From a virus (lineage: Duplodnaviria > Heunggongvirae > Uroviricota > Caudoviricetes): a stretch of DNA of 64,000 bases. Within the stretch, counting starts at the first letter, position 1. Each line of letters begins with the position of its first letter. Position numbers and translations under genes: made by a program. The stretch lies in IMG/VR virus record IMGVR_UViG_2724679237_000005, positions 32,001 to 96,000 of that record; one strand, written 5' to 3'. This document shows, one piece after another, positions 13,236 to 35,647 of the stretch. A model generated the notes under the pieces. The model saw nothing but the letters and a program-made list of their open reading frames with translations, was not told the origin of the DNA and did not search any database.

Positions 13236-13341
13236 GTATGCTGCCAGCGGTAATTGATAGTCTGTCAACGGTTCGCCGTATGCTGCCAACTGTTTTTGGT
13301 ATGCTGCCAGCGGCAAATCAAGTATGCTGTCAGCGGTTGAA
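13236..13341. repeat. upstream iteron set (4 copies of GTATGCTG(C/T)CAGCGG) of replication origin
   Basis: direct repeats at 13236, 13278 (degenerate), 13299, 13323 immediately 5' of repA. Confidence 0.7.
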
Positions 13342-13357
13342 TGACAAAGGTGTCCAC

Positions 13358-14452
13358 ATGTCCACAAAAAATAAAAAAGGTAAAAATAACAAAGAAGTAG
13401 AAGATAATCTCGACAACTTTGAAGAAGGTTCCCTTGAATTGTACACAGGGGAACTTGTCCCTAATAGCAACAATACAGTCCAACCAATTGCGTTGATGCG
13501 GCTGGGGTTGTTCGTGCCCACGCTCAAGGGGACAAAATACAGCAAGCGTAACAAGCCAAATGAGATCGATGCTTCAAAGGAGCTTGTTCAGCTCGAAGTA
13601 GCCCGTTCTGAAGGCTATTCCGATATCAAGATAACCGGTCCTCGTCTCGACATGGATCATGATTTCAAAACGTGGGTGGGCGTTGTGCGTTCGCTGGCAG
13701 AATACGGCGAACCTAACGGTCGTGTCGAGTTAAGCATCACGAAATTTGCGAAGTTTTGTGGCTATCCATCGTCACAGATCCGCAAAACACTCCGCGACCG
13801 GCTTACAAACAGTCTTTTGAAGATCATGCGTACAACTCTGTCTTTCCAGAGAACGTATGAAGAAAAGAACGTCGACGGCTCTAACAAGATCTCGCTTCTG
13901 ATGGTGCACCTCATCAATAGCGTGGACTACAACGAGCAGAAAGATACGGTGGTGTTCTATGCAGAACCGAAGCTGGCCGAACTATATCGCTTTGACCATA
14001 AGGTTCTTTTGCAGTTAAAGGTTATCAATAAGCTACCACGCAAAGAAACAGCACAGGCTCTGTACACCTTCATCGAAAGTCTTCCAACCAAGCCTGCGCC
14101 GGTATCGCTTGCTCGATTGCGTGCGCGACTCAATTTGAGTAGTAGGAATGTCAGCTCGCAGAATCAGACTATACGTAACGGCTTAAAAGCTCTCCAAGAT
14201 TTGGGCTATCTCGAATACAGCGAGATTAAGCGTGGGCGGTCGATCTATATCCAGATTCACAGCCGCAATCCAAAACTCAAAGTCGCACCGCCAAAACCTG
14301 AAGACATCGAACCCAAAAAACCAGATGAGAAAGCTGGGGAAATTGATGCCAAACAGAACATTATCAACAAGATAACCGAACTTTCGCAGAATTTGACGCC
14401 TGAAAATATCAAGATGATTGAGATCCTTTCCAATAGTCTCAAACTGCTTTGA
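13358..14452 (+). CDS. repA: plasmid-type replication initiator (RepA-like, iteron-binding)
   Basis: 364-aa ORF flanked on both sides by iterons; start set at ATG 13358 because ORF-track N-terminus overlaps the iterons. Confidence 0.65.
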   Translation: MSTKNKKGKNNKEVEDNLDNFEEGSLELYTGELVPNSNNTVQPIALMRLGLFVPTLKGTKYSKRNKPNEIDASKELVQLEVARSEGYSDIKITGPRLDMDHDFKTWVGVVRSLAEYGEPNGRVELSITKFAKFCGYPSSQIRKTLRDRLTNSLLKIMRTTLSFQRTYEEKNVDGSNKISLLMVHLINSVDYNEQKDTVVFYAEPKLAELYRFDHKVLLQLKVINKLPRKETAQALYTFIESLPTKPAPVSLARLRARLNLSSRNVSSQNQTIRNGLKALQDLGYLEYSEIKRGRSIYIQIHSRNPKLKVAPPKPEDIEPKKPDEKAGEIDAKQNIINKITELSQNLTPENIKMIEILSNSLKLL

Positions 14453-14985
14453 TATGCTGTCAGCGGTGAAATGTATGCTATCAGCGGCTATTTTTCTGAA
14501 AAGTATGCTGTGAACGGTTAAAGATATGCTACCAGCGGTATAGTGAGATGAACGTATGCTGTGAGCGGTAAATCATCTATCACCACTCAATGCTCTGTCA
14601 TACCTCCCCAGTGGTTACTAACCTCGAAGAGTGCATTCCATATAGGTTTGCGCTCACTAACATTCTATTGCTATTGCGCTGATTGCTTGTAGTGAAAGGC
14701 ATTTATTGCCTGCTGCTCCTGATAGAACGTATGCTGTCAGAGGTGTTTTATTGAGGAATTTTTGTTTGGATATGCTATCAGCGGTAATTAATGGCATATG
14801 TCAGACCTTCGTATGCTGCCAGCGGTAATTTTGTTCTGGTTATACCCATACCGGTACATATTATTCATGCAATGTCTTAAGTATGCTGTCAGCGGTAAAA
14901 AATCGAGTAAAGTATGCTGTGAGCGGTGAGATAGACTCTCGATATGCTATCAGCGGCAGTTGATTGTGTATGCTGTCAGCGGTGA
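14452..14985. repeat. downstream iteron array (about 12 copies of the same 15-bp iteron, irregular spacing)
   Basis: TATGCT(G/A)(T/C)(C/G)AGCGG copies at 14452, 14473, 14503, 14524, 14544, 14728, 14770, 14810, 14880, 14902, 14942, 14967. Confidence 0.75.
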
Positions 14986-21335: not shown

Positions 21336-22505
21336 TCACGTCTTAATAGTTTCTGCTACGTCGGCTAATATCGCTTCTAGTCGTTCTCCCTCTTCAGGTC
21401 TGAAGTAAAGAATGTTGGGGTTAAACCCGTAAAAGACAGTAACGTCAAGGTCTGGAAGATACTCCTTCCTGCCGACCAAATCGGATGGCTTGTTTTTGTT
21501 GTTAAACAATGCCGTTGCCCGGCTGCCACACGTCAGCACATAGGTCGGACGCACCAGATTGATCTCTTCACGTATAAAGTCGGTGAACTGGCCGATCTCG
21601 TCTTTGGTGTAGTCTTTTTCTTTGTCTTTAACCTTCTTGCAAACGCCTGTGACATAGAGATCGCCCATGCGTAAATCTCCAGCCGTCAATAGCTTGGCCT
21701 TAAAGTCGTCGTATCCGTTCTCCATAAAGTAACCGGTTCGAGCATCATTGCCGTTCGCATTGTCCAGAATGATCATGATTTTCGGCTTAATACCAATGCT
21801 GGGGCGGATTAGTTCATCACCTAAGCCCATTTCAGCCGCCATCCGCGTCATGAGTACGTTAATTTCAGCCGAACGTTTGGGGTTCATCTCAAACGAACGT
21901 GAGGCTTTAACTGCGTCTATGACAAGATTTCCCATCAATTCAGCCTGGTCGCGTAGGCGCTCTGGAGCAGTTGCTGGCAGACTACCTGGCTCGATGGATG
22001 CAAACGCCCCTACTTTTTGCAGCGATTCGCGCACTCGACTATTACAGGCACGTTTCTCGACAGCTTCTTCGAATTGCGCCAGTGACTCGAATTTGCCGCC
22101 AACTTTTTCTCGCGCTCTCATGATGGCTTGGCAGCCATTCTCAGAACACCCCTTCACAGCAGAGAATGGCGCATACAGCACCTGGCTGCCATCTTCAAGC
22201 GTGCGGATCTCGATTCGGTTAGATGACACGTTAACGTCTGGTGGCAATACGCGAATTCCATAGGTCAGCGCATCTTTAACCAGCCCTTGGTGTTTATCTT
22301 CGCCAAGAATAGTGAGAGCAGCAGCGAAAAACTCTGCGGGATAATGAGTTTTCAACCACATAGATTGATAACTGATTAAGGAGTAAGCAACAGAGTGTGA
22401 TTTGTTGAAGGCATACGCGCCGGATTTCTCAAACATATTCCAGATTTCTTCGGCTCGTTCGTGCGTCAGGCCATTGCTCTCTTCAACTACACTGGTAATT
22501 TTCAT
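21336..22505 (-). CDS. dnaE: DNA polymerase III alpha (DnaE-type) C-terminal fragment
   Basis: YAFNKSHSVAYSLISYQSMWLKTHYPAEFFAA matches DnaE segment following the fingers domain. Confidence 0.8.
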   Translation of the reverse strand: MKITSVVEESNGLTHERAEEIWNMFEKSGAYAFNKSHSVAYSLISYQSMWLKTHYPAEFFAAALTILGEDKHQGLVKDALTYGIRVLPPDVNVSSNRIEIRTLEDGSQVLYAPFSAVKGCSENGCQAIMRAREKVGGKFESLAQFEEAVEKRACNSRVRESLQKVGAFASIEPGSLPATAPERLRDQAELMGNLVIDAVKASRSFEMNPKRSAEINVLMTRMAAEMGLGDELIRPSIGIKPKIMIILDNANGNDARTGYFMENGYDDFKAKLLTAGDLRMGDLYVTGVCKKVKDKEKDYTKDEIGQFTDFIREEINLVRPTYVLTCGSRATALFNNKNKPSDLVGRKEYLPDLDVTVFYGFNPNILYFRPEEGERLEAILADVAETIKT

Positions 22506-23236
22506 TCAGTCACCTCATCAATCTTCACGAACTCATACCCATTGGAGGCCAGCCAGTCCCGCTGGCGCTCCCAGCTCCATACCTTTTCACGCATTTCGCT
22601 ATGCAGGCGAATGTGGGCGTCTTCTGGAAGTGCCACCAGATTCCCAGGGGCGTTATCTACCGTATCGCGGTTAATATGGTGGACATGTTCATCGTCACGT
22701 AGCTCCCGACCGAGACGTTCTTTCGCTATCAACCGATGAACGTATTCGTATTGCGAAACGCCATTGTTACCAACCAGCTGCATCATGTAGCCGTTGGTTT
22801 TTACGATGATGCCATCTTTGTAGTTGTTCGCTTCTTCTCCGATCTTTCCGCGTTTGGCAGCCGCCAGCTTTTCCTTCGTCTCCGCGCGGATTGTTCTGCC
22901 GGTTAGCTTTTTCGAAACGGTGGCCACTCGCTCATCGATATCAGCACGCAGACCGGCATTCCACGAGGTTTTCCCATACATAGGGTTGCCAGTGCCAGTC
23001 CGGGCTTCGGAGAGTCGCTTCATACGTTCGTCATTATTTTTGTTTTTGCCACGATTCCAGGCTGGGGTAGCGGAGATCCGCGCGTTTCCGCGCCTGATCC
23101 CCCATTTGGCTAATAAGCGGTCAATATTTGCCTTGCTGCAACCAGCTTCGGCGGCAATGTCTTCTTTTCTCATCAGGTCAACCATGTAACGCTGACGTAA
23201 CCATTCTTCTGTGATTTTGTACTTCGTACTCGGCAT
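22502..23236 (-). CDS. HNH homing endonuclease inserted between dnaE fragments
   Basis: C-terminal HNH motif (EHVHHINRD...N) plus NUMOD-like repeats. Confidence 0.75.
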   Translation of the reverse strand: MPSTKYKITEEWLRQRYMVDLMRKEDIAAEAGCSKANIDRLLAKWGIRRGNARISATPAWNRGKNKNNDERMKRLSEARTGTGNPMYGKTSWNAGLRADIDERVATVSKKLTGRTIRAETKEKLAAAKRGKIGEEANNYKDGIIVKTNGYMMQLVGNNGVSQYEYVHRLIAKERLGRELRDDEHVHHINRDTVDNAPGNLVALPEDAHIRLHSEMREKVWSWERQRDWLASNGYEFVKIDEVTE

Positions 23237-23284: not shown

Positions 23285-25648
23285 TCAAATATCGAAGCTC
23301 GTTATGTCGGCATTTATTGCCATTGCTTCGGCATAAGTGCGACGCTCACCATCAGCACAAAGTAGGCGTGCTGCTTTATGGATTTTTCTCGTAGAACCGT
23401 CATCCAGTGACACTGTCACCCAGCCTTCCTCCGCTCGCTTAATGAAGTCGCCGCCAATGGATTTCATTTTCTCCATATCTTTTTTCCCGATCGCTTTCCT
23501 GACCGAGTCTGCTTCCGCCATTGAGAACCCCGCCAAGATTCGCGTAGCAGCCATGATCTGTTCCTGATAAATCAGAACACCGTTTGTGTCGCGAGAGATG
23601 TCGTCCAGCATAGGGTGTAAGGAATGTGGAGCCATGAAGCCTTTGGCCACGGAGACATAGTCGTCCAACATGCCGGATTGAATCGGGCCTGGTCGGAAGA
23701 GTGCGGTCGTGGCGACAACGGTCTTGAAGCTCATTGGCTCGATGCCACCGCCCAGATCTTTAAGCAACTTACGCATGGGGCCGGACTCCAGCTGGAATAC
23801 GCCCTGCGTGTACCCTGCAGCGAACCCATCCAGAACCTTGCGATCGTCCAGTGGGATAGCGTCGAGATTGATATCTTCACCTGTGTTCTCTTTTATGTAG
23901 CGTTTTGCACTATCGAGCAAATCGAGAGTTGCCAGGCCAAGCACGTCCAGCTTAATTAGGCCCATAGCCTCGCAGTAACGCTTGTCAAATGCGATACAAC
24001 GCGCGTCACCACGTCGTTCAACCGGTGTACGTTCTGTCAGAGGAACACCTGCTACGATCATCCCTGCCGCATGTCTACCAAAGCCACGCATAAGGCTTTG
24101 TAACTTGCAGGCTGCATTGAATGCATCAGGATATTTTGTTGCGTATTTGTCGAGACTTGCCAGTTGTTCGCGCAGTTCTTCCAATGGAAGGCTATCATCC
24201 TCAGCGTTCTTCAGTTCTTTTGATACCGCCATATCTGCGGACTCCACACCATAAATACGAGCGGTGTCACGTAGTGCAGAGGCTGCGCCCAGGTAGGTGA
24301 AGTTCGGAATGCCTGCAACGTAATCTTCGCCGTAGCGTTCATTCAGATACTCGATCACCTCATGGCGACGTGCCTGGCTGAAGTCCAAATCCGCATCTGG
24401 CAAGTCGAGACGCTCAGGGTTGATGAAACGCTCAAACAGAAGACCGTGACGGATTGGGTCGACGTTGGTTATGCCTATGCACCACGCCACCAGAGAACCG
24501 GCAGAGGAACCACGACCAGGCCCAACGGGAATGCCAGTTTCACGACTATGATTCATCAGATCGCGCACCATCAGGAAGTAACCACAGAATCCCAGGCGAG
24601 TCAGCGTGTCCATTTCGTACTTTAGCCGCTCAACATAAACCCTGTTCTCAGAAGCAGGTGGTGTGTATCCAAACTCTTTTGTGGTAAGACGTTTACGCAG
24701 CCCTGCAACAGCCAGTTTCATCAGCGTTGCAGGTTCGTCGTCTGCCATCTTGGGCAGTGCTGGTGGCAATTCATGCCAGCGCCATGTGCAGGAATCGATA
24801 ATGGTATCCTGCGTTGTTGAGGCCATTGCAGCTGTTACAGGCACATCCATGCGAACGGAGAAGGCTTTAAGCGCCTCAAGGAGATGGCGGCGACCATTGA
24901 CGGCGTTATCTCGCTGGTGGGGGATACGCAGACGATGCGGCTGGTCGATTTTGATGTTGTTCGTAACCATGTGCGCAATGTCTTTAATGTCTGCATCGTC
25001 GATCGATTCGTAATAAGCGGGATAGAACGCCACTGGCTCTATTTTCAATGCGCTGGCGACTTTCATCGCCCGGACGTTAATCTGGTCGTAGAATGGGGTA
25101 GGGTGCGGATAAACCACACTATAGAAGTTGTCTTTTCCACCCGCTGTAATCAGTGTGCTTATGATTTTTGCAAAATCGTTGCGTTGGAACACGCTACCGA
25201 TGTCGGAAGTAAGCAGGATGATGTTGCCTTTGGCATATGTAGAAACCAACTGTTCGAGCGAGAGACGCGGTACAAAGTAGAACTGTTCTCGTGTGTTGGC
25301 CGCCGTCATTAGTTCGCAGATGTCGCGATATCCTTGCTCATTTTTAATTAGAGCGGTAAACGAGTAGTTACGTCCCCGCTCTAATGATTCCATACATCTC
25401 ATAGATTCTTTAGCAAGTTTAGCCCGGTGCTCGTATGTGGGATCATCAACAATGTTTAGTTTCACACCACAAATAACCGCCATGTCGTCACCAGCGGCAC
25501 GTTGTAGTGGAATAACGCTCGCAATATTCATGCTATCTGCTGAAATTACAGCGGTGTAGCCAGCTTCTCTGGCAATCTTCACCGCGTTTTCTGCTTTTAG
25601 AGCCGACTCCCCAAGTGAGAAGTCAGTTCGAACCATCAGTGCCTTCAT
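23285..25648 (-). CDS. dnaE: DNA polymerase III alpha (DnaE-type) N-terminal fragment (PHP, palm, fingers)
   Basis: GFCGYFLMVRD, PVGPGRGSSAGSLVAW, FQLESGPMRKLL, LFRPGPIQSGM, IYQEQIMAA align to DnaE. Confidence 0.85.
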   Translation of the reverse strand: MKALMVRTDFSLGESALKAENAVKIAREAGYTAVISADSMNIASVIPLQRAAGDDMAVICGVKLNIVDDPTYEHRAKLAKESMRCMESLERGRNYSFTALIKNEQGYRDICELMTAANTREQFYFVPRLSLEQLVSTYAKGNIILLTSDIGSVFQRNDFAKIISTLITAGGKDNFYSVVYPHPTPFYDQINVRAMKVASALKIEPVAFYPAYYESIDDADIKDIAHMVTNNIKIDQPHRLRIPHQRDNAVNGRRHLLEALKAFSVRMDVPVTAAMASTTQDTIIDSCTWRWHELPPALPKMADDEPATLMKLAVAGLRKRLTTKEFGYTPPASENRVYVERLKYEMDTLTRLGFCGYFLMVRDLMNHSRETGIPVGPGRGSSAGSLVAWCIGITNVDPIRHGLLFERFINPERLDLPDADLDFSQARRHEVIEYLNERYGEDYVAGIPNFTYLGAASALRDTARIYGVESADMAVSKELKNAEDDSLPLEELREQLASLDKYATKYPDAFNAACKLQSLMRGFGRHAAGMIVAGVPLTERTPVERRGDARCIAFDKRYCEAMGLIKLDVLGLATLDLLDSAKRYIKENTGEDINLDAIPLDDRKVLDGFAAGYTQGVFQLESGPMRKLLKDLGGGIEPMSFKTVVATTALFRPGPIQSGMLDDYVSVAKGFMAPHSLHPMLDDISRDTNGVLIYQEQIMAATRILAGFSMAEADSVRKAIGKKDMEKMKSIGGDFIKRAEEGWVTVSLDDGSTRKIHKAARLLCADGERRTYAEAMAINADITSFDI

Positions 25649-29579: not shown

Positions 29580-29830
29580 TCAATCAATCCATTCTAACTT
29601 ATACTATGGTAAGGAATACTACTAAAATTTGTATCAATACTGAATACATCTATATCAGATGCAAGTTAATTTTCTTACCTATTTTGGGCTGGTTTTTCTC
29701 CATGCATGGACCTTTGCTCGGTCTTACAAGTGCCTGCCGAAAAAAATGATAATAGCTTTACAACCCTAATCTTTGATGTAATATCGGTAAGCACTTACCA
29801 GAGAGAATTAAACGCGCAAAGGTTGTAATA

Positions 29831-30217
29831 ATGTCTGACAACAAGATTGAATTTATAGAAAGTCGCTATGCTGCTTTTATCGCAGGGCTGATTGAATCCT
29901 CACCTATGAGTCAGGCCCAAATAGCCAGACTTATTGGTTATAAAAATGCCAACAACCTTTCTTTAATTAAAAGTGGCAAAATTCCTTTGCCTATCGATAA
30001 GGTTCGTCCGCTGGCGCTGGCGCTGGGTATTGAGCCAAGTCGTCTTATGATGATGGTGCTGGAAGAACGCCAACCTGAACTCGCAGCATTTTTATACAAA
30101 GAAGGCACCGCTCCTCTTAACGAGGACGAAAAACAGGTTCTTGCTGCATATAACGAGCGATTCGGTAAAGAGAAAGGCGCATCACAAAAGGTTGTTGAGG
30201 CCATAAAGTCTCTATGA
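29831..30217 (+). CDS. XRE-family helix-turn-helix transcriptional regulator
   Basis: SQAQIARLIGYKNANNLSLIKSGK HTH; convergent with recombinase gene. Confidence 0.7.
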   Translation: MSDNKIEFIESRYAAFIAGLIESSPMSQAQIARLIGYKNANNLSLIKSGKIPLPIDKVRPLALALGIEPSRLMMMVLEERQPELAAFLYKEGTAPLNEDEKQVLAAYNERFGKEKGASQKVVEAIKSL

Positions 30218-31315
30218 AAAATTTACACGAATAAGCTCTGTTGATAGACGATCTCCCTTGAATTTGTGGTCAATTTCGTCTAAATCCGGTTGCTCTACGA
30301 TTGATGCGATGTACGTCGAGAAACTTTCTAAGGCGTCTCGCATCTCGTCCATATAATCGTGCCGGTCGTAGACCCGATCTATCCCCTCAAGACTGTGGTT
30401 CATGATTTTGCGTGATACCTCCTGGCTTATGCCTAATGCTGGGAAGTAACTACGCGCAGTACGGCGCAAATCTCGGGGTGTAAATGGCTCAAGCTCCATC
30501 AGTTCTGGTCGTTCCAGAATACGACGTAATGCCTGGGCTATTGCCACTTTAGACATAGGAAGGTCTTTCCCGATTTTTTTATTCGAAGGCACGAGCCACT
30601 GGCTATCTTTACCGTATTCGAACAACTCTTCAATGCATGTGCGCATTAATGTGCTTAAAGGCAGCGAATGCTCACGTGCTGACTTGTTTCTTTTGCCTTG
30701 ATTCCAAACCCCACGCTTAAGATTGAACTCACTTTTTTTAGCCCGCAGTACTTCGTCAGGTCGTCTTGCTGATACAAGACACAGCCTGGCCGCCCATTTT
30801 GTACCAGCGCACACATTGAAGTAGTCCCATATATTCCAGAACACCCATACCTCTGCGTCGGTCAGCTTCCGCTCGCGAGGTGTGGGCTTTGCGCCACCGG
30901 CAACTTTGTTTAGTGACATATCGTTTAACGGTGACACGTCTATCATTCCCTGGAAGGCGCACCAGCTAAGGAACTGCTTCATCAGAGAGAAAACGCGGCG
31001 GCCCATAACAATTTTGCCATCCAGTATTAGTGGGTTGACCAGTTGGTTCACCATGAACCTATTAATGTCACTTACTTTTACATCGGCAATGTGCGGCAAA
31101 ACATGTATCAAAATACAATGAACAGCGATCTCTGGCCGACGTCTTGTTATCAGCAGAGATAAGCGAGTGAATAACATGAATGCGTCCGAGAATCTCATGT
31201 CATTGCTGACCTGGGAGATCATAACGGCCTGCATTTGAGATGCTCTTTCGAGATACTCAATCGCCTCTTTTGAGGTGTTCTCCGCAGCGCGTGCTCTGTC
31301 AAAGCTATTTTTCAT
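30212..31315 (-). CDS. tyrosine site-specific recombinase (integrase or resolvase)
   Basis: C-terminal catalytic region with LRRTA, NHS and YDRHDY (R-H-R-Y family layout). Confidence 0.85.
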   Translation of the reverse strand: MKNSFDRARAAENTSKEAIEYLERASQMQAVMISQVSNDMRFSDAFMLFTRLSLLITRRRPEIAVHCILIHVLPHIADVKVSDINRFMVNQLVNPLILDGKIVMGRRVFSLMKQFLSWCAFQGMIDVSPLNDMSLNKVAGGAKPTPRERKLTDAEVWVFWNIWDYFNVCAGTKWAARLCLVSARRPDEVLRAKKSEFNLKRGVWNQGKRNKSAREHSLPLSTLMRTCIEELFEYGKDSQWLVPSNKKIGKDLPMSKVAIAQALRRILERPELMELEPFTPRDLRRTARSYFPALGISQEVSRKIMNHSLEGIDRVYDRHDYMDEMRDALESFSTYIASIVEQPDLDEIDHKFKGDRLSTELIRVNFS

Positions 31316-31413
31316 ATGACAATCACCGAGTTACGCCGATGTACTGTATAAGTAAACAGTATATTAGGCATAGATTCTTATAGGATCAAGAGTAAAAGTA
31401 ACTCATTTTCAGT

Positions 31414-31446
31414 AATGATTCCATACATAGTAGGTATGGAATCATT
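31414..31446. promoter_or_regulatory. lox-like site: perfect 13-bp inverted repeats AATGATTCCATAC/GTATGGAATCATT around a 7-bp spacer
   Basis: read directly; lies about 100 bp upstream of the tyrosine recombinase start. Confidence 0.6.
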
Positions 31447-31525
31447 TAGACGTTGTTTTTTGAATTTTAAGGGAAACAGGAGTGAGTTTGGTGGGAATAA
31501 AAACGGCTCCTGTGAGCCGTTTAAA

Positions 31526-31771
31526 TCAGAGGGTGCTGACGTATGCAGCCAGTTCTGTGTATCCGCCAATCGGTTGGCCATCGATCAGTACCTGGGGGAT
31601 AGTCTCTACCGGTTTACCAACAATTTCACTAAGTTTTTCCTTGTCGATACCGGCAGTGGTGATGTCGATGTACTCATAATCACCGTAGCCATGTCCCTTT
31701 AGTTGCTTCGCCAGCTCGACCGCACGTTTGCAGTATGAGCAGTTATCTCGTCCGTAGATAGTGATCGTCAT
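31526..31771 (-). CDS. glutaredoxin
   Basis: TIYGRDNCSYCKRA CxxC motif and GKPVETIPQVLIDGQPIGGY; start at internal ATG with GAGGT RBS. Confidence 0.8.
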   Translation of the reverse strand: MTITIYGRDNCSYCKRAVELAKQLKGHGYGDYEYIDITTAGIDKEKLSEIVGKPVETIPQVLIDGQPIGGYTELAAYVSTL

Positions 31772-31945
31772 TGTTACCTCATAGAATTGATATGCAACTT
31801 TACTTACAAAGAAGATAGGTATGTGCATACTTATCATTGCAGTCTGCATTATAAAGCTATTAAAGCCTCGATCAATCTATTAATTAAGGCATTGTTTGGT
31901 TAACATTACCCTAATATTTTATAGTTAGTAGAGTGAAATACATAC

Positions 31946-33208
31946 ATGCCTTTTTTAATTTTCATTATTATACTACTGCTCACCGTGATTTTTTGGGATT
32001 GGGTTGTTTTAAATGGTCAAATTGTTGGAACATTGGCTACAGCATTTGCTTTTATAGCAACAGCATGGAATGCCTACGAAGCGAGAAAAAGTGCAAAAGC
32101 AGCTTTTTCAGCCCTTCAATTAACAACAGAATCATTGTTCGAAATGCGAAAGAGTGCATTTAAACAATGGTTTGATTCCTTATTAAATCAACATGATGAG
32201 CTATGTCTTCTTGCAAAACAAATTATCGATAAACGCAAAGTTAATTTAAACAGCGATGAGTTACATAGACTATATTACCCATTGGTAAAACAGCATGAGG
32301 TAATACAGTATGTGAAGCATATTATTAATATTTTTGAGTATGTGGATAGTTCATTTTATATTGATGGGGAATGTCTAAAGGAAAAAAGAGCGTATGTGTC
32401 ACAATTAATTTTCAAAATCCCACCTCAGATGAAGTTGATCATTGCTATCTTTGGATTAAAAATCGATTATTGTGAACATATTAATTCGGGAAAACTGTGT
32501 TGTTTATTGAATAAATATGATTTTTTCAATGATGAAATATTTTTTGATGATGCTTATTCAGATATGCCTTATCTGGATGCATTCATAAACCTTAGATTCA
32601 ACAAAATATTCAAATCTCGAATGATAAATTATTTTGATAATATCATTAAAAGTTATTATGTTCCATCGGACGTTAAAAGGGACTGGATGTTTCGAAACCC
32701 AAAGCTCGTGCCGTCGGTTCTTATGAATTATAAAACTCCTTGTTCTCCTATAATTAATGATTACTTTGAGAAGTTGCCTTTACATGTAAGAAACTACTTT
32801 GAGGAACTACTTAAAACCGCGAATGATAGAGTTACTCATTTTGACGTTTACATCCCACGCCTTATTGGTTGTTCAATCGTGCAACATTACGAAGATGTGC
32901 CTTCCGAAAAAAACAGGTTAAATGACAGGAATGATGTAATAGCTATGGCTGAAGATTACATCGAGAAAAGAAAATATAATCAACTGGATTACATACTTGA
33001 AGATATATACTTCAAGAGTGACGAAGATATAATCCCTGGCCACCATTTGATTGTGGCATTTGATGACTATGAATTTAAATTATCACTCATTAAGATAAAT
33101 GAGAATAAAGATAGCGATAATCTTTTAAATCGAATTTATACTGAATCCAGTAGCATGGTTAAAGAATATAAGCGCGAAATATTAAAACTGGGCGACTATG
33201 TAAAGTAA
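31946..33208 (+). CDS. membrane-anchored protein of unknown function in AT-rich island (candidate defence or exclusion protein)
   Basis: 420-aa ORF, two N-terminal hydrophobic helices, strongly AT-rich versus surroundings, own terminator. Confidence 0.6.
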   Translation: MPFLIFIIILLLTVIFWDWVVLNGQIVGTLATAFAFIATAWNAYEARKSAKAAFSALQLTTESLFEMRKSAFKQWFDSLLNQHDELCLLAKQIIDKRKVNLNSDELHRLYYPLVKQHEVIQYVKHIINIFEYVDSSFYIDGECLKEKRAYVSQLIFKIPPQMKLIIAIFGLKIDYCEHINSGKLCCLLNKYDFFNDEIFFDDAYSDMPYLDAFINLRFNKIFKSRMINYFDNIIKSYYVPSDVKRDWMFRNPKLVPSVLMNYKTPCSPIINDYFEKLPLHVRNYFEELLKTANDRVTHFDVYIPRLIGCSIVQHYEDVPSEKNRLNDRNDVIAMAEDYIEKRKYNQLDYILEDIYFKSDEDIIPGHHLIVAFDDYEFKLSLIKINENKDSDNLLNRIYTESSSMVKEYKREILKLGDYVK

Positions 33209-33223
33209 ATTGCACTGTTCAAC

Positions 33224-33255
33224 AAAAAAGGGGCCGAAGCCCCTTTGAATTTTGC
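33224..33255 (+). terminator. rho-independent terminator (bidirectional character)
   Basis: stem ggggc/gcccc with cgaa loop, flanked by A-run and T-run. Confidence 0.6.
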
Positions 33256-33320
33256 GCTGAAAAAAGTGTTGCTAGGATGTTAGCAAGCTATGGTTAAGAA
33301 CGTCTGCCGTAATTATCTAT

Positions 33321-33398
33321 CACAGCGTTGAGCGGTCTGGTTTATGTTAGCGGAGTCTTAATCGAGTTGATTAAAAGGCCAAACCGCTCAACGCTGTG
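33321..33398. repeat. 16-bp inverted repeat (cacagcgttgagcggt / accgctcaacgctgtg) with about 46-nt loop abutting tRNA-Ser 3' end
   Basis: read directly. Confidence 0.4.
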
Positions 33399-33400
33399 TC

Positions 33401-33487
33401 TGGCGGAGAGTAATGGAATCGAACCATCATCGTTTGCACAATGGGACGGTTTTCAAGACCGCTTGAGCACCATGCTCCCTACTCTCC
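33401..33487 (-). tRNA. tRNA-Ser (anticodon UGA), type II with long variable arm
   Basis: hand-folded cloverleaf: acceptor GGAGAGT/ACTCTCC, anticodon loop CTTGAAA, T-loop GGTTCGATTCC, encoded CCA. Confidence 0.75.
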
Positions 33488-33807
33488 AGCTATTGTGATG
33501 GTCGGTGCTGAACTCCGACACAGGGTTGTAGCAAGCCCCGCAAAGCGCGCACTACTGTAGTTGCGGCACATCAGCCTGTGCATTCATCACAATGGTAAGA
33601 TCACTACCTTTCGACCAGTCATTGTGCACATGAACGACGATTAACCGTAATGATATTATCGTTGTGTTGTGAAGCCAGATGCTTATCTTCTGGTTGCTTC
33701 AAAGAGCTGCACTTCCTCACAACGGTAAGAGCACTGGTCTGACTCTATCGATTTACGGCCTTGTGGGTCAGTATCGCCGATTCGCCCAATGCTCTTACCT
33801 GTTGTGT

Positions 33808-33883
33808 TGGTGCCGGTTAACGGACTTGAACCGCTGGCCATTCGCTTACAAAACGACTGCTCTACCAACTGAGCTAAACCGGC
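33808..33883 (-). tRNA. tRNA-Thr (anticodon UGU)
   Basis: acceptor GCCGGTT/AACCGGC, D-arm GCTCAGTTGGTAGAGC, anticodon loop TTTGTAA, T-arm AGCGGTTCAAGTCCGTT, CCA. Confidence 0.8.
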
Positions 33884-33887
33884 AATT

Positions 33888-33974
33888 TGGTGGGGAGTGA
33901 TGGAGTCGAACCACCCGAGTCGCCATGACAGTAGATTTACAGTCTACACCGCTACCTCTACGGACTAACTCCCC
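33888..33974 (-). tRNA. tRNA-Tyr (anticodon GUA), long variable arm
   Basis: acceptor GGGGAGT/ACTCCCC, anticodon arm GTAGA-CTGTAAA-TCTAC, T-loop GGTTCGACTCC, CCA. Confidence 0.7.
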
Positions 33975-33979
33975 TAAAT

Positions 33980-34054
33980 TGGCGATGGTGGGTGGATTCG
34001 AACCACCGACCAGTTGGTTAACAGCCAACTGCTCTACCGCTGAGCTACACCATC
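33980..34054 (-). tRNA. tRNA-Asn (anticodon GUU)
   Basis: acceptor GATGGTG/CACCATC, anticodon arm GTTGG-CTGTTAA-CCAAC, T-arm GGTGGTTCGAATCCACC, CCA. Confidence 0.8.
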
Positions 34055-34832
34055 AATTCAGCACTGCCAGTATTTATTACTCAACAGTGCCAATCGCGAC
34101 GGTTTAGTTTCTGCCAGGAAACGCACCGCTACTTGCACTTTTCGTTAGTGCCAGACGCTTTCGACTTCGCTCAATAGTAGAAGGCAAAATCTTTAAGTAG
34201 ATGATGTTTCTGAGGACAGCACCTACTTTGTAATTTATACAATGTGATGTATGGAATCATTTGTTGTGAAAACAGGCACCAATGGCAACAGTGGTTAAAC
34301 CTACACAACAATCCCGTCTTCACAACGTTGAGGCCACTACTCCGATTGAATGTTTGCCCAACATGTTACATATCAACGCTCGCCGGTATCTCTGTGAATA
34401 GAACCTTAGAATTGATAAAAATGTAATGGCCTCAACGTTGTGTGCTGGCTAACCATACCAGCCGGGCTACGTCGCCGCTTTTTAACCCAGTATAAACGAC
34501 ATAATTGAACAAAATGACGTAACAGGATGGGCGGTCAGTGGCTAAGAATCCGGGAGTCATATGGAGTTGAAAATATACCAACCGCCCATTCTGTTACTTC
34601 ATCGGAGGGAACATGAATGTTCCCTCCTGCGTTCTGCAATCACACTCGCTCAGTGTGTCCCATTTCGGTAACGAGGCTGGAAACTGACCTCGCTGGTGTT
34701 TGGCTTATTAGGCTACTGCCAGATAGACTTCTTCGTTTGCACTTGTATTTAAGTTCAAACAGTCGCGTCTCAACGAAAACAAAGTCATCTTATACATAAA
34801 AGATAAGTAAGTAAACACTTATCGCTGTGTTT

Positions 34833-35123
34833 TTATTCGGTTGTGACTTTTTTGATCAAGGCCACTCTACGACTAGGTGTTCTTGTGATGGTGGCAGTGA
34901 ATCGTTTCGCTTGGATAGTAATGGTTTCGTTCTCCTTAAGTTGCCCGTAGCGAGTTTCAACCAGGGTGCCAAGACGCCACAGACCATCATCGATACGTTT
35001 ATGACTAGCAAATTTAATCAGCAACAGTTTTACGACTAACTGACCTACGTAAAAGGCGAATGCGACTCCGGCCGCTAAGAAATAGGTGGCCAACCACCAT
35101 TCCCAAGAAGTTAACTTGCTCAT
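34833..35123 (-). CDS. membrane protein (N-terminal TM helix)
   Basis: 96-aa ORF, AAAGGTGA RBS, ATGA overlap with upstream small ORF. Confidence 0.5.
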   Translation of the reverse strand: MSKLTSWEWWLATYFLAAGVAFAFYVGQLVVKLLLIKFASHKRIDDGLWRLGTLVETRYGQLKENETITIQAKRFTATITRTPSRRVALIKKVTTE

Positions 35124-35272
35124 TTTTTCACCTTTGTTTCATGAACTACCCGATACACGCGCTTTCCGATGCACAGTGTTTTGGTTTTAAGTTCCTGCTT
35201 AATCAAATCACGACAGATGCCGAAGCCGATAAGGAAGCCACCCATAAAAGCCAATGAGATGTATGGAATCAT
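35120..35272 (-). CDS. small membrane protein
   Basis: 50-aa ORF starting MIPYI inside the GTATGGAATCATTT motif, AGGAG RBS 7 nt upstream, ATGA-coupled both sides. Confidence 0.4.
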   Translation of the reverse strand: MIPYISLAFMGGFLIGFGICRDLIKQELKTKTLCIGKRVYRVVHETKVKK

Positions 35273-35484
35273 TTCAACGCTCCTGACTCTACTAGTTGCT
35301 GTAGCAATACTTTCCCTTTATCAGTTAACTGGTAGTTGGCCGAACACTTCGTTTCAGAAACGTTTGCAACCAACCCTAACCGCTCTAACTTAGCCCGCGT
35401 TTTAGGCTTCCAGTACTCAGGGAACTCTGACCACTTACTGATTTCATGAAGTGTTTCCTTCTCCCGTTTACTTAATACGATCAT
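35269..35484 (-). CDS. hypothetical protein
   Basis: 71-aa ORF with strong AAGGAGA RBS. Confidence 0.5.
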   Translation of the reverse strand: MIVLSKREKETLHEISKWSEFPEYWKPKTRAKLERLGLVANVSETKCSANYQLTDKGKVLLQQLVESGALK

Positions 35485-35647
35485 CCTTAATCTCCTTCAC
35501 GGTGTTGGTTATTTCTACAATGCGATAAATACGACCGCGTCTTTCTATAACACCGCTTTTAATGTAGTCATTGATGCAACTGGACATCACCACAATACCT
35601 ATGAAAAAACCAACTGCTAAAAATGCAATCATCCAACCGAGCATCAT
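35471..35647 (-). CDS. small membrane protein
   Basis: 58-codon ORF with N-terminal TM helix; ATGATG start overlaps ligase stop. Confidence 0.35.

Follow-up and report, generated by a model that had tools for sequence, protein, structure and literature searches.

Conserved lone copies of a recombinase-arm sequence around a predicted lox-like site in an SSU5/pHCM2-type phage-plasmid

The 64-kb stretch of DNA analyzed here (the window) represents an SSU5/pHCM2-type phage-plasmid, an element of about 110 kb with its own recombinase. A short word recurs in the window as the two arms of a palindrome next to the tyrosine recombinase gene int and as single copies kilobases away. These lone recombinase arms are kept letter-perfect, in and between genes, facing a lox-like site, and have the appearance of additional places for the recombinase to dock. 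The leading explanation, held tentatively, is that the word is the binding element of the recombinase (Int), that the palindrome is a core site of the lox/dif type, and that the lone copies are orphan, non-recombining single arms that would bind Int.

The palindrome and the recombinase gene

The palindrome lies 98 bp upstream of the int ATG (Table 1), and an 11-7-11 core is found directly upstream of int in all relatives. It stands beside int in E. coli, Y. pestis pMT1, S. Typhi pHCM2, Klebsiella and Enterobacter, where the Int proteins are 56-100% identical, and is also upstream of int in Pantoea and Rahnella megaplasmids, where Int is 46-47% identical. The Pantoea and Rahnella plasmids, which lack an adjacent HTH gene, are not phage-plasmids; their arms carry the same two changes on both sides (TGACTCCAGAC-N7-GTCTGGAGTCA). 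Judged from this distribution, the palindrome belongs to int, tracking it across replicon types with arms that co-vary with it. The spacer varies between lineages, at least eight different spacers being found, and in near-identical plasmids exactly the 7-bp spacer is inverted. Inversion of the spacer is thus tolerated, which would be harmless only if the palindrome recombines with copies of itself. An adjacent tyrosine recombinase gene, inverted arms with a 7-bp spacer, co-variation of the arms and a free spacer are all present, as in sites of the lox, FRT and dif type. The palindrome therefore behaves like the core site of the recombinase, with a predicted role in crossover. The searchable literature yielded nothing on this palindrome or recombinase site.

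Table 1. Features of the palindrome region and the lone sites (positions in the window)
Feature	Position	Strand	Description
Predicted core (crossover) site of tyrosine recombinase	31414..31446	.	13-7-13 inverted repeat adjoining int
Left palindrome arm	31414-31426		AATGATTCCATAC
Spacer	31427-31433		ATAGTAG
Right palindrome arm	31434-31446		GTATGGAATCATT
Tyrosine recombinase ("integrase"), int, 367 aa	30212..31315	-	PF00589, E=4.7e-10; phrog_1 integrase
Predicted int promoter	31342..31389	-	Read from sequence; between palindrome and int ATG
-35 element of predicted int promoter	31389-31384		TTGATC
-10 element of predicted int promoter	31366-31361		TAATAT
LexA-box-like sequence of predicted int promoter	31361-31342		TACTGTTTACTTATACAGTA
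Lone site B	34246..34261	-	AATGATTCCATACATC; intergenic, ~195 nt upstream of tRNA-Asn
Lone site C	35258..35273	-	AATGATTCCATACATC; over stop of 71-aa ORF and start and codons 2-5 of 50-aa ORF
Lone site D	25383..25398	+	AATGATTCCATACATC; antisense inside dnaE, codons for C-M-E-S-L
Lone site F, decayed remnant in int	30699..30712	+	TGATTCCAAACCCC; 3/14 positions changed
50-aa membrane-protein ORF	35120..35272	-	Start inside site C; full-length phrog_6302 match; Cyrano CYRAN_38

The residues RRPDE (R184/R185), K211, RDLRRT (R281-D-L-R284-R285) and Y316/Y321 of Int are invariant in 8 homologues; the candidate catalytic positions among them were picked out by visual inspection alone, and the HxxR box starts with R. 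A weak Phage_int_M match corresponds to a central domain of the P4/lambda type. Sequence links of Int to solved recombinases were marginal, and structure prediction gave a pLDDT of 38 and no usable fold. The predicted int promoter is kept in pHCM2, pMT1, Klebsiella and lineage L006. Induction by ciprofloxacin was 39-fold for the near-identical phage Cyrano (PMC9928086).

Lone copies of the arm sequence

The 13-mer AATGATTCCATAC is the most repeated of all 13-mers in the window, with five copies, namely the two palindrome arms and lone sites B, C and D. An earlier note on this DNA had reported the recurrence of a 14-mer at three loci, and exact copies of GTATGGAATCATTT were indeed found at 31434-31447, 34249-34262 and 35261-35274 (+ strand). 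Copies matching at 13/14 positions are present on the minus strand at 31413-31426, the left palindrome arm, and at 25382-25395, inside dnaE. The count against shuffled sequence that the earlier note had proposed gave five matches in the window at up to two mismatches; 100 dinucleotide shuffles averaged 0.71 and always stayed below five. The three lone copies are one identical 16-mer, AATGATTCCATACATC, and 20 nt are identical between C and D in inverted orientation. B, C and D have 13 nt in common with the arms, and there is no arm-like sequence across the would-be spacer. The dnaE copy, a 3-bp ATC extension, a common orientation and conservation in relatives go beyond what had been noticed before. 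In contrast, the 8-mer ATGGAATC, which had been pointed out near the 3' end of tRNA-Ser, is shared by chance: it occurs nine times in the window on both strands, five of them inside motif copies, against an expectation of about two for any 8-mer.

The lone copies occupy the same places in the E. coli, Salmonella, Yersinia, Klebsiella and Enterobacter relatives. TGATTCCATACATC stands unchanged at B, C and D amid flanks, codons and even amino acids that vary. Site B is an invariant 14-nt island amid diverged intergenic DNA, its 11-mer being intact in 79/80 loci sampled via an upstream anchor. At site C, TGATTCCATACATC is unchanged in six of eight lineages with variable flanking codons; in L006 the DNA motif has decayed and the peptide MIPYL is retained. 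Every position of site D, wobble positions included, is invariant between hypervariable codons, and the site is intact in 35 of the 36 unique sequences sampled via an anchor 46 nt away. Relatives such as pMT1, pHCM2 and Klebsiella have an intact site F; the E. coli lineage and L005 have lost it. The int gene of L005 encodes the same peptide IWNQ with codons different from the word at F, indicating that coding alone does not fix this word. As judged by these comparisons, the lone copies are under nucleotide-level selection acting on the DNA itself. Moreover, motif position 13 has changed from T to C repeatedly, at B, D and F, irrespective of the transcribed strand, which fits recognition of duplex DNA. 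The 11-nt core is without variation across the phage-plasmids, and co-variation of arm and int is known from the palindrome only. In Pantoea and Rahnella, the 15 kb to each side of int contained no lone copies.

Almost every lone site has conserved the ATC extension, which no palindrome arm carries. This counts against Int as the binder and might reflect binding in another mode or by another factor.

The copies are clustered around the palindrome. All six exact 11-mers of the complete pHCM2 (106.7 kb) lie inside 13 kb, and all motif copies of the window lie inside 10 kb. In pHCM2, and likewise in the window, the plus strand carries the copies to the left of the palindrome and the minus strand the copies to its right. 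All lone copies thus point towards the palindrome, a pattern that represents only four independent events (p ~1/16). Each lineage examined has at least one lone site on either side. The lone sites are 0.7 to 6.8 kb from the core and several are within coding sequence.

Three functions had been suggested for the repeated word, that is, extra recombinase-binding sites, duplicated gene starts, or an operator overlapping translation initiation. The start of the 50-aa ORF at copy C was borne out, as it begins inside the copy with AGGAG 8 nt upstream. The claim that a MIPY(I/L) start recurs is literally true as a reading of the letters, but the start is a conserved gene start at C only. Duplication of gene starts is not supported, since a conserved ORF (phrog_6302) follows copy C alone. 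At B the reading frame meets a stop 5 to 29 codons on, at a place that differs among relatives, and D and F are antisense, inside dnaE and int. An operator for the HTH regulator fared no better: the promoter region of the HTH gene (29580-29830) carries no copy of the motif, only a different palindrome, GGTAAGCACTTACC, and the int-linked palindrome persists in Pantoea and Rahnella without an adjacent HTH gene. Extra recombinase-binding sites are the best supported of the three suggestions, given that the word is identical to the arms of the int-tracking palindrome and that the lone copies are conserved; the binding itself stays a prediction.

Alternative explanations for the lone copies

The possibility was considered that another sequence-specific DNA-binding protein recognizes the asymmetric 14-mer TGATTCCATACATC, the overlap with the arms reflecting shared ancestry or dual use. 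Candidates would be the 71-aa protein whose stop codon is inside C, another phage protein, or a host factor. The ATC extension that sets the lone sites apart from the arms favors such a binder, as does the restriction of lone sites to phage-plasmids, Pantoea and Rahnella having int and the palindrome alone. Furthermore, the ORF of 71 aa beside C was labelled a putative transcriptional regulator by the annotators of Cyrano. However, this ORF has no Pfam match and belongs to a PHROG family of no known function, the HTH protein lacks a motif copy in its own promoter region, and the word agrees at 11/14 positions with the arms of the int-tracking palindrome. A separate binder is therefore considered unlikely. 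An RNA element appears a little less probable still. Here, an antisense duplex of 14-16 nt would couple the transcripts of the small ORFs and the tRNA leader to dnaE or int: transcripts of B and C carry AAUGAUUCCAUACAUC, the dnaE and int mRNAs (D, F) carry the exact complement, and the duplex at C would cover the start codon. All genes of the zone are transcribed in one direction, so that polarity is perfectly complementary on the two sides, and every lineage has at least one copy of each polarity. Site B of L006 and L007 is 15 nt after a tRNA-Gln, within a tRNA trailer, and some variants would keep G-U pairs (GAU to GGU at D and F, C to U at C). On the other hand, variants at B (AUC to ACC or AUA, UGA to UAA) break the pairing and no compensatory change was seen, contigs with the ACC form of B having a canonical D. 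The motif was not preferentially unpaired in local folds and no Rfam family was found at it. The target would also switch between unrelated genes, int in some lineages and dnaE in others, and the identity of the word with the arms of the int-linked palindrome would be left unexplained.

Alternatively, the lone copies might be secondary, one-armed crossover sites like the sfx sites of shufflons, at which Int would bring about inversion, deletion or cassette exchange. Such activity would account for the variation in cargo from the palindrome to B, and the cargo directly beyond the palindrome does differ among relatives, for example by the caf1 operon in pMT1. One conserved arm beside a 7-bp stretch and the inverted 20-mer identity of C and D are also consistent with this model. 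However, the 7 bp beside the lone arms vary from site to site within one genome, ATC excepted, and the tolerated flips of the palindrome spacer argue against a partner whose relative orientation matters. Moreover, recombinants joining two lone sites, or one of them and the palindrome, were absent from PLSDB among several hundred close relatives (~390 E. coli records at 95-99% identity and several hundred Klebsiella records). None of 50 synthetic recombinant junctions (20 for the E. coli lineage and 30 for the Klebsiella lineage, detection requiring an exact 28-nt word) was found, and the matches obtained were spacer flips and parental variants only. Secondary crossover is largely refuted at the population level, and we consider it very improbable. 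Even less credence is given to the view that the copies have no function and are relics of old duplications or recombination, or coding coincidences (MIPYI, CMESL, DVWNQ). It is true that C, D and F overlap coding sequence, that L006 retains the MIPYL peptide without the DNA word, and that F was lost in the E. coli lineage and L005. Nevertheless, three identical 16-mers are not expected by chance in 64 kb, the wobble positions are all invariant between hypervariable neighbors in dozens of lineages, and B, although non-coding, is the best conserved site.

Relation to known systems and a possible role

The anatomy of the sites, their conservation, the co-variation of palindrome and int and the absence of recombinants from PLSDB were observed directly and can be set beside several known arrangements. 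In the Rci/sfx shufflon of IncI plasmids, sites with one conserved arm and a 7-bp spacer are spread over a few kb in both orientations; they share the spacer and recombine, so that inversions are seen in every population. The one-armed sites described here are similarly scattered beside a 7-bp stretch in both orientations, but the adjacent 7 bp are not conserved, the 4 bp remaining after ATC differing within a genome except for C and D in the E. coli lineage, and PLSDB held no recombinants. The third FRT element, DR1/DR2 of TnpI (the Tn4430 IRS) and DR1/DR2 of IntI1 (attI1) are accessory recombinase-binding elements which act in synapse architecture less than about 100 bp from the core. The lone sites resemble them as extra single copies in a defined orientation that are not crossover points, and differ in their kilobase distances and in lying partly inside coding sequence. 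The Ter/Tus fork trap and KOPS consist of polar sites flanking dif that are bound by non-recombinase proteins and are unlike the dif arms. Here, too, polar sites lie on both sides of a resolution site and are oriented to it; however, they consist of the recombinase arm sequence, and GC skew does not switch at the palindrome.

As in Cre/loxP of P1, Dre/rox, Vika/vox, Nigri/nox and Panto/pox, the recombinase gene adjoins a single inverted-repeat site with two repeats of about 13 bp and a short asymmetric spacer, and as in P1 the site is on a phage-plasmid with presumed multimer resolution or cyclization. For Cre-type systems, looking for inverted repeats next to the gene has been a successful way of predicting the target site (PMC4957104; PMC7969092). 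The present system differs in its spacer of 7 bp rather than 8, in the P4/lambda-type central domain weakly matched by Int, and in the lack of a detectable sequence match to Cre when Int was compared with the PDB. To our knowledge, no Cre-type system has been described with conserved orphan arms kilobases away.

As summarized in PMC11840125, which cites Karaboja et al. 2021, the XDS of Bacillus subtilis are dif-like, XerD-bound sequences clustered near dif that unload SMC complexes. The lone sites likewise consist of one arm without a second arm, clustered around a putative resolution site, and the XDS offer a precedent for the role other than recombination that is proposed for them. The XDS differ in being chromosomal and dependent on the host Xer system, whereas the present sites are on a 110-kb phage-plasmid with its own recombinase.

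In the explanation favored here, the two inverted copies with a 7-bp crossover spacer would form the lox/dif-like core site, which would most likely serve plasmid multimer resolution or recircularization of phage DNA. B, C and D, together with F in relatives, would be orphan single arms with the ATC extension, kept by selection on the DNA and flanking the core within a few kb on both sides without being crossover partners. Each orphan arm may bind one recombinase protomer; we infer such binding of Int, and its effect is more conjectural still. As auxiliary sites bracketing the core, the orphan arms could create a recombinase-bound or looped local domain, or a polar barrier around the resolution site. 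We know of no established role for single half-sites kilobases from the core in simple tyrosine recombinases.

An unlikely extension is a polar, recombinase-based domain around a multimer-resolution site, with half-sites embedded in dnaE, int, a small-ORF start and a tRNA leader and with the protomers facing the core. Replication forks, loop extruders of the SMC/MukBEF type or transcription might meet a boundary or trap in such a domain; alternatively, the half-sites might together make up a split pseudo-site for synapsis with the core. If true, it would be a plasmid-borne counterpart of the Ter/XDS/KOPS organization at dif, made from the recombinase's own binding element.

The repeated word and its setting

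Exact copies of the 14-mer were recovered at 31434, 34249 and 35261, as the earlier note had reported, but its list of copies was incomplete, a 13/14 copy at 25382-25395 (minus strand) in dnaE having been missed. The left palindrome arm is likewise a 13/14 copy. The five matches in the window were not reached in any of 100 shuffles, and AATGATTCCATAC is the window's most repeated 13-mer. The palindrome has a 13-7-13 layout, while the lone copies B, C and D are identical 16-mers (AATGATTCCATACATC), with 20 nt common to C and D. The 8-mer shared with tRNA-Ser, to which the same note had drawn attention, proved unremarkable, and a literature search for the word returned unrelated primers only.

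Escherichia phage CMS-2020a and phage Cyrano (pLF82) share 97-98% identity with the region of the window, Salmonella phage SSU5 is a more distant relative, and plasmids from E. coli, Klebsiella, Salmonella, Enterobacter and Yersinia match it in their hundreds. Because of this phage identity and these plasmid matches, the window is, judged from its sequence, an SSU5/pHCM2/pMT1-type phage-plasmid. The features of the region are collected in the table.

Features around the repeated word (window positions unless another sequence is named)
Feature	Position	Strand
dnaE, split: 787-aa N-part plus 389-aa C-part	23285-25648 plus 21336-22505	-
244-aa HNH-type endonuclease ORF	22502-23236	
Site D (dnaE)	25383-25398	
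AAA ATPase gene and CobT-like gene	nearby	-
Perfect palindrome GGTAAGCACTTACC	29786-29799	
HTH "putative repressor" gene	29831-30217	+
Tyrosine recombinase gene (int)	30212-31315	-
Site F, decayed (TGATTCCAAACCCC)	30699-30712	
Site F in relatives L002, L003, L004	15607-15620	
Predicted sigma-70-like promoter of int	31342-31389	-
Core palindrome	31414-31446	
Palindrome spacer	31427-31433; relative L010, 6027-6033	
Variable cargo zone	31447-34245; relative L002, 9115-14241	
Glutaredoxin gene	nearby	-
Low-GC (36%) 420-aa cargo ORF, phrog_18168	31946-33208	+
tRNA-Ser, Thr, Tyr, Asn	nearby	-
Long inverted repeats amid tRNA genes	33321-33398, 33714-33810, 34263-34326, 34321-34442, 34514-34602	
Site B	34246-34261	
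Four small ORFs, DNA ligase gene	nearby	-
50-aa and 59-aa ORFs	35120-35647	
Site C	35258-35273	
Second repeated-word family	13236-14985	

The dnaE gene is split by the HNH-type endonuclease ORF, and a split by a NUMOD4 HNH is annotated likewise in a Klebsiella relative; dnaE is intact in Cyrano and pHCM2 (~1170 aa). In this family of phage-plasmids, the variable cargo zone extends from the palindrome to B. It holds the glutaredoxin gene, the 420-aa ORF and the four tRNAs in the window, the caf1 F1-capsule operon in pMT1, and toxin and immunity genes in Klebsiella, and some E. coli plasmids have an insertion of ISEcp1-blaCTX-M within or adjacent to it. CYRAN_43, the Cyrano cargo gene adjoining the palindrome, was reported at 723 times background in lysogens.

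The long inverted repeats amid the tRNA genes have arms of 14-22 nt, loops of 36-82 nt and ends of the form CACA(A/G)C...G(T/C)TGTG; one abuts site B, and 9 relatives have the arm AGTGGCCTCAACGTTGTG unchanged. Structured RNAs, processing signals and MITE-like elements are all possible identities for these repeats. The 50-aa and 59-aa ORFs look paralogous: in both, a membrane helix at the N-terminus precedes G(K/R)R(V/I)YR(V/I)V(H/E)E. Along with a 96-aa ORF, they make up a series of small membrane proteins located between the tRNAs and the ligase gene. The second repeated-word family, ACCGCTG(A/G)CAGCATAC and variants, has at least 10 copies within 1.8 kb and probably represents iterons or the centromere of the plasmid replication/partition region.

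The palindrome and the recombinase

Homologues of int were gathered by protein search. Immediately upstream of int, Cyrano, Y. pestis pMT1, S. Typhi pHCM2 and Klebsiella all have the core TGATTCCATAC-N7-GTATGGAATCA, and so do three phage-plasmids that are more distant, their Int being only 56-60% identical. Megaplasmids of Pantoea and Rahnella, in which Int is 46-47% identical, keep the palindrome beside int in an 11-7-11 layout, both arms carrying the same two substitutions (TGACTCCAGAC); the neighbour genes of this int are unrelated, and no HTH gene adjoins it. The spacer varies among lineages. Exactly its 7 bp are inverted in one E. marmotae plasmid, whose flanks are almost exactly those of the window, and likewise in four plasmids of K. 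oxytoca or K. variicola (H128-H131), whose flanks are near-identical to those of plasmids with the other form. The two forms are ATAGTAG and CTACTAT in Escherichia and TTGGTAG and CTACCAA in Klebsiella. The flip could be due to loop inversion of a perfect hairpin or to recombinase action. Since the arms are kept, the spacer drifts and flips, and the whole travels with the recombinase gene, the palindrome looks like a site of the lox/FRT/dif type, and from comparison of these sequences it is probably the site of Int. Sites of Cre-type enzymes have been predicted in this way and later verified (PMC4957104).

The Int protein has a catalytic Phage_integrase domain and a weak central-domain match. 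When its profile was compared with the PDB, marginal matches to XerH and lambda Int were obtained and likeness to Cre was undetected by sequence; a single-sequence structure model was unusable (pLDDT 38). Panto/pox was ruled out as a relative of the Pantoea homologue, Panto being a Cre/Dre-like enzyme with a 13-8-13 site.

In the DNA separating the palindrome from the int ATG, a conserved, predicted sigma-70-like promoter (TTGATC-N17-TAATAT) overlaps a LexA-box-like sequence, TACTGTTTACTTATACAGTA. The int gene therefore looks SOS-controlled, in keeping with the report that ciprofloxacin induces Cyrano 39-fold (PMC9928086). The promoter and the LexA-box-like element are present in pHCM2, pMT1, Klebsiella and the relative L006 and absent in the relatives L005 and L007.

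Conservation and orientation of the lone sites

Lone copies occur at homologous places in the pHCM2, Klebsiella, pMT1 and Enterobacter relatives, and alignments of relatives showed TGATTCCATACATC to be an invariant island at B, C and D. The intergenic DNA surrounding the island at B is poorly conserved; at C, where it coincides with the start of the 50-aa ORF, the ribosome-binding region and downstream codons vary; and at D, in dnaE, codons and even amino acids vary on either side. The arm is followed by ATC in nearly all lone copies and never in the palindrome. A scan of IMG/VR with the 14-mer as query was biased and gave mostly chance single matches in unrelated contigs, and IMG/VR was re-sampled with anchors outside the motif, which avoids selection on it. 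In this sample, G[A/G]TGTATGGAATCATT was kept at D in 35 of 36 unique sequences, in which the preceding 8 nt took more than a dozen forms, and at B the 11-mer was kept in 79 of 80 loci and the ATC in 76. One IMG/VR contig has a 7-nt tandem duplication inside D (GATGTATGAGATGTATGGAATCATT) that would shift the dnaE reading frame; either an error of sequencing or a true disruption of the motif may account for it.

The word is not explained by coding constraints, since in L006 the small protein still starts MIPYL with the DNA word at C decayed, and in L005 different codons encode the int peptide IWNQ. A fourth class of copy, site F, lies antisense inside int over the codons D-V-W-N-Q (GAT GTA TGG AAT CA), ~0.7 kb from the palindrome, towards which it points. 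Several IMG/VR contigs carry it, as do pMT1, pHCM2, Klebsiella, L006 and L007, and it has decayed in the window and in L005. Co-variation between lone sites and arms was uninformative, the 11-nt core being invariant in every phage-plasmid lineage down to 56% Int identity. In Pantoea and Rahnella, where the arms differ, no lone copies were found around int within 15 kb on either side.

Across the complete 106.7 kb of pHCM2, the 11-mer has six exact copies, namely D, F, the two arms, B and C, and these fall within 13 kb. Lone copies share a strand on each side of the palindrome and switch strand across it, so that every one points at the palindrome, and the window has the same strand pattern. 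At least one lone site is found per side in each lineage examined: B and C face D in the window, B and C face F and D in pHCM2 and Klebsiella, and C faces F and D in pMT1. L005 carries B, C and D, and both L006 and L007 carry B and F.

Competing explanations and significance

The possibility raised in the earlier note that the copies are duplicated gene starts was not borne out, nor was a role as operators for the HTH protein: a conserved ORF (phrog_6302) opens only at C, and the HTH promoter region has no copy and a different palindrome. That palindrome, GGTAAGCACTTACC, just upstream of the HTH gene, forms with further GGTAAG and CTTACC words at ~29608 and ~29675 a candidate operator set for the HTH regulator, unrelated to the present motif; the HTH protein is expressed in Cyrano lysogens as a putative repressor. 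If the lone sites were crossover partners, recombinant junctions would be expected. Junctions were built for every possible pairing of the window's five sites and of the Klebsiella relative's six, and trimmed so that parental DNA could not seed matches. When PLSDB was searched with the 20 E. coli-type and 30 Klebsiella-type junctions, the matches were confined to spacer flips, a single SNP variant and one parental variant of B, and the absence of recombinant junctions there argues strongly against such a role. A chromosomal attachment site was rejected, the full palindrome occurring in just seven species representatives, all plasmid-sized contigs. A promoter or terminator was rejected as well, consensus scans showing nothing at B, C or the palindrome; the distance of -10-like words after B is not fixed among relatives. 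A replication terminus or origin was discarded given no GC-skew switch and repA and iterons 12-19 kb off.

All genes run one way, so transcripts across B and C would be complementary to the dnaE and int mRNAs over 14-16 nt, and the word might act through RNA pairing, with G-U pairs surviving in some variants. However, variants at B would not preserve G-U pairs, and contigs with ACC at B have a canonical D, hence no compensatory change. Moreover, T to C at position 13 recurs at B, D and F whichever strand is transcribed, which is more in line with recognition of duplex DNA than with RNA pairing. The motif shows no preference for being unpaired, Rfam gave no family at it, and RNAalifold found weak structure only (-10.3 kcal/mol, positive covariation term). 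RNA pairing would also leave the identity of the word with the int-linked palindrome unexplained.

A recombinase-binding element is the most economical reading of the word. Taken whole, with Int binding at the lone sites included, this reading is put forward tentatively, at slightly less than even confidence. The palindrome would probably be the core site for multimer resolution or cyclisation, a role that Cre/loxP has for P1 (PMC7969092), and B, C, D (and F) would be orphan sites that Int binds for a purpose other than recombination. As the lone sites on either flank face inward, the resolution site may be enclosed by a polar barrier or by a looped domain to which the recombinase is bound; any one such downstream mechanism is much less likely than the binding reading itself. 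The nearest precedent for orphan non-recombining sites is XerD at dif-like XDS sites (PMC11840125).

Phage-plasmids of the SSU5/pHCM2/pMT1 type are widespread in Enterobacterales; right next to the palindrome they carry the F1 capsule operon of Y. pestis and, to a growing extent, ESBL genes. Definition of the core site provides a testable handle on multimer resolution and on where cargo accumulates, and Int and the palindrome are candidates for an orthogonal recombinase/site pair in which the spacer is 7 bp long. At the orphan half-sites, selection on a DNA word overrides codon, and even amino-acid, choice in an essential replication gene. If the lone sites are recombinase-bound, non-recombining recombinase sites of the XerD/XDS kind would be extended from chromosomes to mobile elements.
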